Virus record (IMG/VR): IMGVR_UViG_2778261228_000002 | Coordinates: 1-14,128 of that record | DNA from: a virus | Lineage: Duplodnaviria > Heunggongvirae > Uroviricota > Caudoviricetes | Length of the DNA stretch: 14,128 bases | Strand: one strand, 5' to 3' | Shown here: piece after piece, positions 3,001-9,000 of the stretch | Position numbering within the stretch: the stretch's first letter is position 1 | Layout: each line of letters opens with the position of its first letter | Position numbers: made by a program

Positions 3001-6000
3001 TTCCTGATCAAAGCTGCCACCAGCGAAGTGTGGTGGCCGGAAGATGCAGACCATATTGCTTTTATTCGCGGGCGTATTGGTTTTGAACTGCCAGCCTGGT
3101 TTATCCCGAAGGACGAGAAGCAGGTGCCGACAGGCGCTTTCTTCGCTGGTGCTATTGCTGTTTTCGACAAGACCTGGAAGGGACCGGCAATCAGCTACAT
3201 CGGGCGCGATGAACTTGAGGCATGTGGTGAGGCCTTTCTGGCGCAGGTTCGCCAGCAGGCGGAAAAACTGGTCAGGGAGATGGCGGCATGACGACGTTAA
3301 CTCAATGCCAGCAGCAGGTGCTGGATATGCTGATTTCTTACCAGCAAGAACGTGGCTTTCCGCCAACCAATCAGGAGGTGGCAACCATGCTGGGATACCG
3401 TTCGGTGAATGCAGCGGTGGAGCATCTTCGCGCACTGGAGAAAAAAAGCGTCATCACGATAAAGCGTGGCGTGGCCCGGGGGATAACTCTTCATACCGCG
3501 GTGAAGGACGACGACAGCGAGGCGGTCGGGATTATCCGCGCACTGCTTGCCGGTGAGGAAAACGCCAGGCTGCGTGCAGCCCACTGGTTACATGAGAGGG
3601 GCCTGAAAGTATGAAGCTGATCTTGCCTTTCCCTCCCAGCGTGAACACGTACTGGCGACACCCCAACAAAGGGGCGTTTGCTGGTAAGAGTCTGATAAGC
3701 GCAGCGGGGCGCAAATTCCAGAGCGCGGCGTGCGCAGCAATAGTTGAGCAGTTACGTCGTCTGCCGAAACCAACGTCGGCACCTGCTTCAGTGGAGATCG
3801 TGTTGTTTCCTCCGGATATCCGCCTGACAGCTAATCAGGCATATCACCAGATGGTGAAGCTGGGGATCGTCGAGCAGCGCGAACGATACAGCCGTACCGC
3901 GATTAACAACATCAAAAAATTCTGGTCGCTGACAGCGAAAGGCTGCATGTTCGGCAAGAACATCACCAGTCCTGCAAATCCGCGCGAGACGCAGCCGCAT
4001 TTCTTCGAATCCCGATTCCCTGAGCTGTTAAAGCTGCTCGATACCGTTCATTGAGGTGACTGTGAGAGCACTACTGACCCCTGAAATTGCCCCGCGTATG
4101 GGGATCGTATTGTTCAGACCTGGTTCAGAGCTGATGCCCCTGTTTATGCAGGGGCGTGTCCTGCTGGAGCCTGAGCCGGAACGTTATTCATCTTTTGCCA
4201 GTGGTGCCGTTCCGGCGGCATCACAACCGCTGGCGGATGATCCTGTCGTTCGGGCCGTGTTCCGCAATGAGGCAGTGATCCGTCGTGCTGGTGGCGTGGA
4301 ATGTCTTGAAAGCTGGTTACTTCGTGAAAAAGGCTGCCAGTGGCCTCATTCCGACTGGCACAGCGAGAACATGACAACAATGCGACACGCGCCGGGCGCA
4401 ATCCGTCTGTGCTGGCACTGCGATAACCAGCTGCGCGATCAGTTCACGGAACGGCTGGAATCAATGGCAACGGATAACTGTGCCCGCTGGGTGTTGTCTG
4501 TTGTGCGTCGGGATCTCGGTTTTGATGACAGTCACGTTGTGACAATGCCGGAACTGTGCTGGTGGCTGATTCGTAATGACCTGGCGGATGCCTTACCGGA
4601 AAGTGCAGCCCGTAAGGCACTGAGATTACCGAAGCCTGTTGTGCCGTCTGTCACCCGGGAAAGTGACCTTGTGCCTTCGGTTCCTGCCACCAGCATCATC
4701 CAGGATAAGGCGAAAAAGGTGCTGGCGCTGAAAGTGGATCCGGAGTCGCCGGAGTCTTTTATGTTACGCCCAAAACGTCGCCGCTGGGTTAATGAAAAGT
4801 ACACGCGCTGGGTTAAGACACAGCCGTGTGCATGTTGTGGAAAGCCTGCTGATGATCCCCACCACCTGATAGGCCACGGTCAGGGGGGAATGGGTACAAA
4901 AGCGCATGACCTCTTTGTGTTGCCTTTGTGCAGAAAGCATCACGACGAGCTGCATGCGGATACCGTGGCATTTGAAGAGAAGTATGGCTCCCAGCTGGAG
5001 CTGATATTTCGTTTTATCGATCGTGCGCTGGCAATTGGCGTGCTGGCCTGATTTTGTGGAGAAAGTTGATGCGTGATATTCAAATGGTTCTGGATCGTTG
5101 GGGAGCATGGGCGGCGAGTGATAGTTCAGGAGTAGACTATTCTCCTATAGCTGCTGGGTTTAAAGGGCTTCTTCCCTATACAAGCAAAACACGTCAGGCA
5201 TGTTCAGATAGTGATGCATTAATTATTGAAGGTTGTCTTGCTCGTCTAAGGCAAAAAAGGCCGGACGAACATTCGCTTCTTGTTGCCCATTACCTATACG
5301 GTATCTCTAAAAGAAAGCTCGCCAAGGCTCGTAAAAAGGATGAGAAACTAATACGCATTGAGATACAGATGGCTGAGGGGTTTATTGATGGCTGCCTATC
5401 GATGCTGGAAATTAGTCTAGAGATGGACCCCGAAATTAAAGATTGATTATTGAAGCCCGATTACTCGGGCTTTTGTTCCACATCTCGAACATAGAGAATT
5501 ACTGCTGACTTAATGTCACCATCGACGTGTTTTGCGTTAATGCTCAAATGTACAGGCTTTCTTTCCCACTCAGCTCGCTGCAATGCTTCTTTGTTTCCGG
5601 ATTCATCAAGGAAAACATCCTGAACTACGCAGGTTAGACGTTGGTCGGTATCTACGCGTCGGACCTTAACTTTGAAACTCTCTGGGTCAGTATTATTGAC
5701 TTCTTCAATTCGGTAAATACCATCAATCCTCATTTCTGATGAACGTCTACGAGCATTCGTAACCAACTCTTTCGCCATTTCAGAATCAATAGTAACGCCA
5801 TCAATTTGAGCGTTATCTGAACGCACAAAGGATTTGACCATTTGGGTTTTAGCGTCATACGACATACGGTCCATGTTATCGAGAAGTGGTTTTTCCGCAA
5901 TCATTTCTGAAATAACCCGCAGGCGTTTAGTTTCTTGCTCGCTCATGATCTGCATAGTCCGGAGATGTTCTTTCTCTCCATCCTTAGCAATTTCTGCAAG

Positions 6001-9000
6001 GCGAATATCTTTACGGTTGTCCAAGAACCGTTTAAATACTGTTACTCCGCCCCAGATGACTGCTGCGCCGAGAACAGTAAACATGATCTCAGTTGCGTTC
6101 ATTTTACCAACAAGTTCCTGTGTGAGTTTGGTTAAAAAGCCATCAATGTTGATTTCTACTATTGAAGAACCCTGTTCTACCGTAACTTCTATTTCTAGGG
6201 CATCAAGTTCTTCTTTGGTCAGTTTGCGGACGTCAGGGACACCGTACTTGGCAAGGGCATATGATTTGTTGATTTGAGCTTGCATTTCAACAAATCCCTT
6301 CATAACTGAAGGTGTTAGCGATCTGTTGAATTTTTCACCGGTTAATCTGATGGTAAGGTTTGGCCATCCGTTGAAACTTAAACTGTCAGGTAAACCATAA
6401 CCATCAAGATAGCTTTCAAGCAAATCGAAGGCTTGCTGCTCAGATTCAATGTCTACATGAATCTCATCAAACTTATCCAAAAATATGTCCTCATTCTAAG
6501 CCAACTGTCACCGTGAGGTTTGGCAACGCCTGCTTTATTTTTCGTTTTAAGCTGTGTGGCAAAAAAATAATGGAAAAACAGATAAAAATCACTAACGCGG
6601 TCCGCATTTTCTAGATTACTGTGTTAAGAGTGGTTACTTCGCCACACAACTTAAACCCGCCGCTGAGCGGTTTTTTTGTACCTGTAAACTTGGTGCAGCA
6701 CAGTAAACACGCTGGTGGTCGTGAATACTGACTTTTTATCTTGCTGGCTTTTTAGACAAGAGTTATTGGTATGTCATGTTAACCAGAAGGGAAAAAGACA
6801 TGCTAAAACAGCAAGATATGACAGAAACCGCCGCCGCAGTCCTTCATTTCTTACCTGCTGACAAGTGGGTAACGCCACGCATGATGACGAGAACTACCGG
6901 AGTAAGCGAAGCCCGGTGCCAGTTAATACTGACTCAGTTAGTTCTGGCGGGTCTGGCGAAGGATAACGGCGGGTACGGGAATAAATTCAGACGCTGCCAG
7001 TAATGGCGGTTTCCTGCTGTGAAAATGGGCGGCTGGTGGGTGTTGGTAGCACCTGCCAGCCATTCGCTCATGCTTACTTGTCACAAGCGAACCACGGCCC
7101 ACTGCTTTAGCGCAAAAGCAGAGTGAGCCTACCAGAGTTACGCTTACTGATCCATGAAAATACTGTAAAAATAAACAGTGTTGATTTAATCAACGCTGAT
7201 TGCCTGCATTTTATTCAGTCCCTGCCTGATAACTCCATTGATCTGATTGTTACCGATCCGCCGTACTTCAAAGTGAAGCCCAACGGCTGGGACAATCAGT
7301 GGAAAGGGGACGAAGATTACCTGAAGTGGCTGGACCACTGTCTGGCCCAGTTCTGGCGGGTACTGAAACCAGCCGGAAGCCTTTACCTGTTCTGTGGGCA
7401 TCGCCTGGCATCTGATATTGAGATCATGATGCGTGAACGTTTCAACGTGCTTAACCATATCATCTGGGCGAAGCCGTCCGGACGTTGGAATGGGTGTAAT
7501 AAAGAAAGTCTGCGCGCATATTTTCCTGCCACAGAGCGCGTTCTGTTTGCTGAACATTACCAGGGGCCATATCGCGGCAAAAGTGACGGCTATGCGGCAA
7601 AAGAAAGGGAACTCAAACAGCACATAATGGCACCGCTGATATCGTATTTCAGGGATGCTCGTGCCGAACTGGGTATAACGGCAAAACAAATTGCCGAAGC
7701 CACAGGTAAGAAAAATATGGTTTCCCACTGGTTTGGTGCCAGTCAGTGGCAGTTGCCGAATGAGGCTGACTACCGGAAGTTACAGGCACTGTTTTCCCGT
7801 ATAGCGGCAGAGAAGTTTCAGGAACAACAACTGGAACAACCACACCACCAGTTGGTGGCATCTTATGATTCACTGAATCGCAAATATTCTGAATTGCTGG
7901 ATGAGTTTAAATCTCTCCGGCGCTATTTCTCCGTATCAGTCTCCGTGCCTTATACCGATGTCTGGATGCATAAACCCGTTCAGTTCTACCCGGGTAAACA
8001 TCCGTGTGAGAAACCGGCGGATATGCTCAGGCAAATAATCAATGCCAGTAGTCGACCCGGCGATCTGGTTGCTGATTTCTTTATGGGATCCGGTTCCACA
8101 ATAAAAGCAGCAATGGCGCTGGGGCGTCGGGCGTTAGGTGTTGAGCTTGAGACAGAGCGGTTTAATCAGACCATCCAGGAAATCAGTATGTTATCAGCAA
8201 ATACAATTTTGTGAATTAATTCAATTATTGGTGGGATGTCTGTGCCGTATAATGATTACAGATACAGTGTATCCTGCAATGCAGCAGGGCTGATGTGGTG
8301 GGTTGTACATAGCCTGCAAAGGATTGGCTTCATTAATTCATCGTTGATACAAGCGAGTCACGGTTGACCACGCCAACGGCTCATCGGTAAAAATCCGACA
8401 CCGTGTCTTCTTAACTCACTTATTGTTTCCACCCATGTTTTTGGATACCTGCTGTAGCTGTCAGATTAGCGCGATAATCTGACAGCTTTTTTTTTACAAC
8501 GAATCCTTCTGATCTGCTTTTGCGGGGCTTTTTTGTATCCGCTCCATGCCCGGCGTATAAGCGGAGGTTGGTCAGTTTTCTAAAAATTGAAATACCTCAC
8601 AATTCAGCCAGTTAATGGTTGTTTGTCTGGCGAAGAGTTTGTAAATAAAAAAACGCATGGTGAATCCCCCTAAGCGGCGGGGCGAATCAGCAGTCAGTTC
8701 TGGGATAATCGCGGGTTCGTATGCTGATGCCGGACTCACCGGGAGGCACCCGGCACCATGCATCATGGTCATCCCCTTGTATGATACCCCTCTCCGGAGG
8801 GGTATTTTTTGGATAAAAAAGCCCGCGCTGGGAGGCACGGGCGGCAAGGAATAAAACGTGAAGAAATTTTCACAGGCGCATAATAATCCGATGTTGCCAG
8901 ATTTTGCAACTGCATCATCTGGTTATTATGTGAGCTGGAAAATCAGATTCTGTATGGACTGAAGCCATGCTGTTATTTAGGGCCAAAGAGCTGGCTTTTT

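Follow-up and report, generated by a model that had tools for sequence, protein, structure and literature searches.

We describe here a gene in the Q-to-lysis region of a lambdoid prophage, carried on a stretch of 14,128 nucleotides from a tailed virus (positions 1 to 14,128 of IMG/VR record IMGVR_UViG_2778261228_000002; hereafter the window). The gene, an open reading frame (ORF) that could be followed without interruption in the window sequence, starts with TTG and converges with the antiterminator gene Q, the stop codons of the two being only 14 nt apart (Table 1). In the avian pathogenic Escherichia coli (APEC) strain O78 the same interval is annotated by RefSeq as a 'hypothetical protein'. 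An earlier note on this DNA, made from the sequence alone, had proposed this ORF together with its TTG start, a strong Shine-Dalgarno (SD) sequence and its convergence with Q; the coordinates, the RefSeq entry, the position of the SD motif and the Pfam match of Q all agree with that proposal. We found that the gene is under strong purifying selection and is not a chance ORF, that its product belongs to a new protein family, and that it forms an autonomous presence/absence cargo unit, or moron, with a terminator of its own in a true hot spot. We also propose, from its genomic context, that it may protect the lysogen against other phages.

The start codon was examined closely, as the earliest in-frame ATG occurs only at codon 60. 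Residues E14, A17 and W39, all N-terminal to that codon, are nearly invariant in a 150-sequence alignment of the family, and because residues preceding the ATG are conserved family-wide we take the TTG start to be correct. In database entries of 274-280 aa, this same DNA has been called from ATGs inside the gene, at codons 60 and 66. Under longest-ORF calling, TTG starts were found in 30 of the 43 distinct homologues, and five further 'ATG' calls, which are placed right on the SD sequence, almost certainly start at the TTG two codons downstream. TTG is kept at this position (6478-6480 in the window) in about 80% of distinct homologues, despite a DNA divergence that, in those closer pairs that allowed an estimate, nears synonymous saturation. 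The combination of a conserved weak start with a strong SD sequence suggests that translation is restrained or regulated, as would be expected of a protein harmful in excess.

The gene is present at 99% identity or more in 86 of 5426 complete E. coli genomes, each time as a single chromosomal copy. The earlier note had pointed out that a stop or frameshift would indicate a dead gene; there was none, and all 86 E. coli copies are full length. Compared with homologues of 89-98% protein identity, synonymous divergence (dS) ranged from 0.29 to ~2.2 and nonsynonymous divergence (dN) from 0.006 to 0.064, and dN/dS was 0.014-0.042 in the four comparisons permitting an estimate of dS. Because dN/dS is this low while synonymous sites are heavily diverged, the gene must be real and strongly selected. 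The compositional shift put forward in the earlier note stood only in part: the gene (GC content 0.420) is indeed AT-richer than the upstream 5.4 kb (0.524), but the adjacent Q is as AT-rich (0.438), so that the shift starts before the gene and the compositional argument is weak.

Profile scans with the ORF protein against Pfam, NCBIfam and PADLOC matched no family, in keeping with the inability of the earlier note to name one. Pfam returned a sub-threshold match only, to the FNIII-A domain of tail protein J (FNIII-A_GpJ; E 0.002, below the cutoff), and a sub-threshold match to the MetS small subunit fell on the hydrophobic helix of the protein. A sequence-profile search of the PDB gave nothing below E 0.1. 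The family of this gene is PHROG 6191, to which residues 3-337 align over profile positions 2-337 of 338 (E 1.6e-152); this PHROG has no annotated function, and membership explains no mechanism. A word-indexed search returned 101 relatives from Enterobacterales, Pseudomonas, Acinetobacter and Burkholderiales, all 'hypothetical' and devoid of Pfam domains, and an exhaustive profile search retrieved 1521 representatives of 50% identity clusters at E <=0.001, of which 590 reach E <=1e-30; nearly all are 320-350 aa long, with ~335 aa typical. A further search with a profile of 150 sequences, limited by a candidate cap, added almost none. Only three distant relatives were detected by tblastn among 50,697 phage records, indicating that the family is rare in sequenced isolates, and only five plasmid records carry it. 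Our literature searches found no paper on WP_000357056.1 or PHROG 6191, and broader searches gave analogues only (BstA, Tab, Tai, HepS and PdpSau). The gene therefore encodes a new protein family with a novel N-terminal domain and without a profile of known function in the libraries searched, while the element that carries it is of a known kind.

The boundaries of that element can be drawn from other E. coli prophages, in which the same flanks (DUF968-Q upstream, a 75-aa ORF and a DNA methyltransferase downstream) hold other cargos, each in reverse orientation: an unannotated gene of 148 aa, an unannotated pair of 149 and 313 aa, or a pair of 140 and 289 aa. An alignment of four cargo variants placed the right boundary at ~6617-6622, which gives a cassette of ~1.2 kb. 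The 289-aa 'LAPAL motif' protein, found in the same slot in E. coli 31B19CPO012 (locus L097 of our collection, 4144-5013), matches the PADLOC candidate PDC-S42 (E 8e-33). Because the same flanks carry different cargos, the slot is a true cargo hot spot, which bears out the earlier suggestion of a Q-adjacent cargo site.

The hairpin over the 3' end of the gene has a minimum free energy of -15.2 kcal/mol on the plus strand (z -3.2) and -17.7 on the minus strand (z -4.7). It is kept in every Q-adjacent homologue, down to ~70% protein identity, and the alternative cargos bear different hairpins. With TTTTGTT following on the plus strand, it should also end transcripts leaving Q. Two other hairpins considered as terminators, at 6594-6608 and 6659-6671, fold no better than shuffled sequence. 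The block conserved across cargo variants, which may belong to the late promoter/tR' region, is also found (window 6621-6775, plus strand) behind a different Q type. The late promoter pR' was not located, and the gap between Q and the gene is too short to hold it. The claim that the gene is oriented against late transcription is thus not established, as the cargo-independent conserved block starts only at ~6621.

Table 1. Features of the cargo locus in the window (positions in the window; strand given where assigned)
Feature	Position	Strand	Evidence or remark
QuuD-type antiterminator gene Q, convergent with the cargo gene	5054-5446	+	PF06530 (Phage_antitermQ), E 2.1e-52; 25 distinct Q sequences flank homologues likewise
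Variable cargo cassette (terminator, gene, 5' region)	5447-6620		Flanks common to prophages with other cargo
Hairpin AAGCCCGA-GTAA-TCGGGCTT, 20 nt, over the last three codons and stop	5453-5472		The gene's own 3' hairpin; followed on the plus strand by TTTTGTT
Coding sequence, 339 aa plus stop, TTG start	5461-6480	-	RefSeq WP_000357056.1, PHROG 6191 match, dN/dS
C-terminal OB-fold beta-barrel (predicted), aa ~245-335	5476-5748	-	Conserved NARR, RIDGxYRI and AEWxRxPV motifs
Basic juxta-helix segment and helical linker, aa 150-222	5815-6033	-	Among the more variable regions (aa 1-35 the most variable)
Hydrophobic helix EIMFTVLGAAVIWGGVTVF, aa 131-149; possible membrane segment or buried/oligomerisation helix	6034-6090	-	Family motif ITVLGxAxIWGG; model confidence (pLDDT) ~90
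N-terminal alpha/beta domain (predicted), aa 1-128	6097-6480	-	Net charge -10; aa 41-80 the most conserved part of the protein
Shine-Dalgarno GAGGA, 7 nt 5' of TTG	6488-6492	-	AATGAGG(A/G) motif kept in Q-adjacent homologues
Terminator-like hairpin AATGCG-GAC-CGCGTT followed by AGTGATTTTT	6594-6608	-	Far edge of the cassette, upstream of the gene; sequence conserved, energetically weak
Beginning of the conserved block common to the cargo variants, including terminator-like GCCGCTGAGCGGT-TTTTTTG (6659-6680)	6621-6680	+	Weak fold

The cassette is not confined to this slot. Among the 86 homologue neighbourhoods that we examined, 44 lie beside Q in the same stop-to-stop arrangement, and all of these are close relatives (>=68% identity). 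Relatives of <=63% identity are mostly found immediately downstream of, and co-oriented with, the repressor gene cI. This arrangement recurs in many IMG/VR contigs as well as in Morganella, Salmonella (where the repressor is of the short Gifsy type), E. coli phage phi458 and Moraxella phage Mcat17; in Acinetobacter the repressor and the homologue are separated by two further cargo genes. All ten upstream neighbours tested were CI-type repressors (nine with Peptidase_S24, eight with HTH_3 and two with the Phage_CI_repr HTH domain). Several loci, L068 among them, carry a repressor that we take to be lambda CI. The flanks of L068 match HK542, HK244, mEp234, HK106 and HK97, phages in which hicAB or other genes stand between cI and N, and where the C-terminal part of CI resembles that of HK542, mEp234, HK106 and HK97 the gene occupies this cI-N interval. 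Further sites include the junction of integrase and tail fibre; a Pseudomonas aeruginosa homologue between tail genes I and J; a viral contig in which the gene stands between methyltransferase and holin/lysozyme, co-oriented with both; and a cassette of ~46% identity, on contigs that probably derive from Proteus according to a plasmid-collection match, which occurs convergent with a cI operon and beside a lipoprotein gene and a 976-aa gene, presumably the tape measure. Across several genera, the cassette thus travels between accessory-gene slots of temperate phages, of which at least five are in use, and its favoured site outside the Enterobacteriaceae is the repressor operon.

Further genes accompany the homologue in two of these settings. 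In all eight of the contigs with ~46% identity (L082-L089, ~4084-5987; probably Proteus) the homologue is preceded by a 123-aa HECAH (HExxH) protein without a Pfam match; a reverse 60-aa ORF in these contigs has a sub-threshold YjzC-like match (E 0.006), and the downstream neighbours vary. In an Acinetobacter prophage (L010, 4308-8193) the homologue belongs to a run of cargo lying between the repressor and the early genes, in which there are also an HSDR_N-domain protein of 390 aa and a GGDEF protein of 315 aa.

An AlphaFold2 model built from a 49-sequence alignment was confident and compact, with a predicted local distance difference test score (pLDDT) of 84 and a predicted template-modelling score (pTM) of 0.71. 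It comprises the N-terminal alpha/beta domain, helices at residues 129-144 and 146-163, three more helices up to residue 220, and a C-terminal beta-barrel. The acidic N-terminal domain and central hydrophobic helix described in the earlier note are both found here. The N-terminal domain has no fold relative in the PDB. The C-terminus is modelled as an OB-fold, whose structural matches are SSB, PriB and RPA as well as metal-, sugar- and protein-binding OB domains. Mean-field direct coupling analysis of 237 sequences (effective number of sequences, Neff, 179) recovered beta-pairings of this fold, for instance 247-317, 245-320 and 251-315. The best-conserved stretches of the family are residues 41-80 (LTGEKFxxSLTPSVMKGFVExQ...YA..KYG), RIDGxYRI (251-258) and AEWxRxPVxLxINAK (303-317).

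What might such a protein do? Because a single-gene, terminator-bounded cassette roams accessory slots and favours the repressor operon, it is highly probable that the gene is expressed in the lysogen. The earlier note had taken it for a lysogen-expressed accessory gene, and the homologues downstream of and co-oriented with cI strongly suggest the same. Judged from genomic context, phage exclusion or abortive infection (Abi) is favoured as the overall function, at slightly better than even odds, because competition between phages is a universal selective agent across hosts and because the cI-adjacent slot houses exclusion genes. Our best explanation as a whole, to which we assign a probability of about 0.45, is that of a mobile moron, expressed at a low level in the lysogen, which protects against other phages through exclusion or Abi by the following mechanism. 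The resident prophage would express the gene at a low level; the OB-fold, possibly together with the N-terminal domain, would recognise a phage nucleic acid or protein; the protein would then oligomerise in or at the inner membrane through its small-residue-rich helix (LGAAVIWGG); and the membrane potential would be lost and the infection aborted. The rare TTG start and strong SD sequence would fit a potentially toxic protein whose expression is kept in check. For the mechanism the analogy is with AbiP and PdpSau, Abi proteins that combine an OB-fold with a membrane anchor; with RexAB the analogy is one of position. A stronger form of the proposal is on balance unlikely: that the family is a new and widespread one-protein Abi or exclusion system of Proteobacterial prophages, a functional replacement of RexAB, in which the novel N-terminal domain and the OB-fold would sense an infecting phage, and a latent, conserved hydrophobic helix would then insert into the membrane or oligomerise and collapse the energy state of the cell.

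Several observations weigh against this reading of the gene as a lysogen-expressed exclusion or Abi protein. None of the 5027 models of PADLOC-DB v2.0.0 matched the protein at E up to 10, and the invariant residues form no His/Cys/Asp constellation or catalytic motif that would point to an enzyme. The range of OB-fold matches includes domains that do not bind nucleic acid, so the type of ligand is not fixed by the modelled fold. Position in a cargo slot would fit any lysogenic-conversion function, defence included. Defence sensors often diversify, and the strong purifying selection and near-identical E. coli alleles found here are atypical of them. A consensus scan and a comparison of 5' regions gave no convincing sigma-70 -35/-10 pair for the gene; the sole consensus match (6511-6482) overlaps the SD sequence and start, and conserved 5' blocks are present. 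Finally, the protein has no signal peptide, and the unbroken apolar run of the helix is only ~15 residues long, with charged flanks, in the Pseudomonas and Acinetobacter members, so that membrane insertion is doubtful.

The last point bears equally on a neighbouring explanation, in which a bitopic inner-membrane protein (N-out, C-in) would block DNA injection or the engagement of tail tip or tape measure without killing the cell, in the manner of HK97 gp15, P22 SieA and T4 Imm. The 19-residue Kyte-Doolittle mean of the helix (1.77; family range 1.2-2.3) exceeds the usual threshold of 1.6, the lysines and arginines flanking it (two on the N side, five on the C side) predict the required topology, and an N-terminal domain that is acidic throughout the family (mean net charge -7) would favour export of the N-tail driven by the proton-motive force. 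The positions of some relatives, in Pseudomonas between the tail genes I and J and elsewhere beside a lipoprotein and a tape-measure-sized gene, would also suit a block of entry, and morons of the tail region frequently code for proteins that block the receptor or entry (cor, gp15). Bitopic insertion is nonetheless problematic because the charge bias demands that a folded 128-aa domain bearing 12 lysines and arginines (10-18 across the family) be exported without a signal peptide, through a helix that is short in the distant members. The compactness of the model, together with the lower confidence of the N-terminal domain when modelled alone (pLDDT of residues 11-60 dropping from ~87 to ~78), suggests instead that this domain packs on the rest of the protein, and we regard envelope exclusion as distinctly unlikely. 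The same conflict of topology would disappear if the protein were a soluble cytoplasmic exclusion protein with no membrane role, its helix buried in the fold or in the core of a homo-oligomer and its OB-fold sequestering a phage nucleic acid or protein, whether by BstA- or Tin-like interference with replication or by Tai/Tab-like interference with assembly. A compact, confident model is what this would predict; the conserved helix sequence, with its small-residue packing motifs and high conservation, suits a helix that packs specifically better than one that is a passive anchor; and the matches of the OB-fold to SSB, PriB and RPA, and the weak match to tail protein J, point in the same direction. 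Yet a 19-residue segment of this hydrophobicity, with almost no polar residues, would be unusual in a soluble protein, and coevolution gave no support for contacts between helix and domains, inter-domain pairs occurring at chance frequency in an analysis underpowered at this Neff. A purely soluble protein is no more probable than envelope exclusion. Taken on its own, the state of the helix is evenly balanced: constitutive bitopic insertion, conditional or monotopic membrane association, and burial in the fold or in an oligomer core are roughly equally likely. The description of the protein as membrane-anchored in the earlier note therefore goes further than a marginal helix, the export conflict and a compact model allow.

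Less probable still is a function other than defence against phages, as a lysogenic-conversion or prophage-housekeeping gene in envelope physiology, stress tolerance or the tuning of induction or lysis. Cargo slots do hold non-defence morons, such as iss/bor in this very prophage (11239-11580), and the empty PADLOC search and very strong purifying selection would fit such a role as well. However, the family is spread over Enterobacterales, Pseudomonas, Acinetobacter, Moraxella and Burkholderiales, hosts of unrelated niches, which favours a universal function between phages, and its preferred slot next to cI is best known for exclusion genes, for example rexAB and bstA (PMC8585504). The probability that the ORF arose by chance, or is decaying within a defective prophage, is negligible. 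The window does resemble a mosaic or partly degraded prophage, with capsid-like ORF fragments after the lysis genes, and some database entries are shorter; but the short entries reflect internal start calls, and the low dN/dS, the 1521 clusters of conserved length, the intact E. coli copies and the confident model refute this reading. Exclusion or Abi by a lysogen-expressed moron remains the explanation that we prefer.

Several neighbouring features complete the picture of the window. The cassette is followed by the 75-aa ORF (6776-7003, plus strand; WP_000917724.1), which belongs to no family; as it is common to all cargo variants, it was rejected as a specific partner or antidote. Next come an N6/N4 DNA methyltransferase gene (7123-8214, plus strand; PF01555; PADLOC MTase_II, E 5e-151) and, between it and the holin gene, the small RNA STnc100 of Rfam (RF02076) at 8626-8814 on the plus strand, a full-length match of 114.5 bits against a gathering threshold of 47. 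A homologous pair of small ORF and methyltransferase precedes the homologue in viral contig L090. The minus-strand ORF at 11239-11580, just after Rz, is at the position of the iss/bor serum-survival lipoprotein of APEC O78 and is another moron; the APEC O78 locus differs downstream of iss. Right after the lysis cassette (11710-12713, plus strand), ORFs follow that resemble a capsid protein, in its C-terminal part, and a head-associated protein, with no terminase or portal gene between, and the prophage may be a mosaic or degraded.

If the family does exclude phages, more than 1500 clusters (50% identity) from five bacterial groups (Enterobacterales, Pseudomonas, Acinetobacter, Moraxella and Burkholderiales) would join the defence catalogue with a new domain fold, and RexAB, the mechanism of which remains under debate, would gain a one-gene counterpart. 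As a single cassette with conserved motifs, it is a directly testable candidate. As it moves between five or more prophage hot spots, it should serve well as a marker when cargo slots of temperate phages are mapped. For phage therapy against APEC, extraintestinal pathogenic E. coli and Salmonella, the gene may influence host range.

Comparison with known systems places the gene among several partial analogues. The lambda rexAB genes are exclusion genes downstream of the cI repressor, and the homologues of <=63% identity, directly downstream of and co-oriented with cI, resemble them in position and would be expected to be expressed with the repressor. The copy in the window differs in that it adjoins Q rather than cI; there is no sequence relationship, neither PADLOC nor Pfam giving a match; and a single gene with one hydrophobic helix stands here in place of the RexAB pair of a sensor and a channel with four transmembrane helices. 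The interval between cI and N is also filled by other cargo, such as hicAB in mEp234 and HK106 and BstA in BTP1, and homologues occupy the same slot. BstA is likewise a defence gene downstream of the repressor in BTP1 (PMC8585504), but its product has an N-terminal KilA-N domain, to which the present protein has no Pfam or PADLOC match.

In architecture the closest likeness is to AbiP of Lactococcus and PdpSau of Staphylococcus aureus prophages, which are membrane-anchored OB-fold Abi proteins, PdpSau lying in the lysis-module region of prophages (PMC10127798). They share with our protein, on the basis of its model, the plan of a lone protein, borne by a prophage or plasmid, with one hydrophobic helix and an OB-fold, which is C-terminal here. 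Their transmembrane helix is N-terminal, whereas ours is central and follows a 128-aa domain of unknown fold; the taxa also differ, and no PHROG, Pfam or PADLOC model linked them. Tai/Ati, found in phi80-like phages and phage-inducible chromosomal islands, is a reverse-oriented, lysogen-expressed defence gene of the late region that occurs in several hot spots (PMC11364771). It is a positional analogue only, sharing the reverse orientation in the lambdoid late region; TaiEcA is ~26 kDa and has an adjacent cargo-specific counter-defence gene, whereas the 75-aa neighbour in our window accompanies every cargo. Tab and Tai were rejected as relatives on the grounds of size, distribution and the lack of a tblastn match, phi80 not being among the three relatives detected. 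Finally, although its protein family bears no relation to the product of any named moron, the cassette agrees with the classical lambdoid morons (in the Hendrix/Juhala definition; for example nmpC in DLP12 and HK97 gp15) in being a presence/absence unit, in its position between Q and the lysis genes and in carrying its own terminator.

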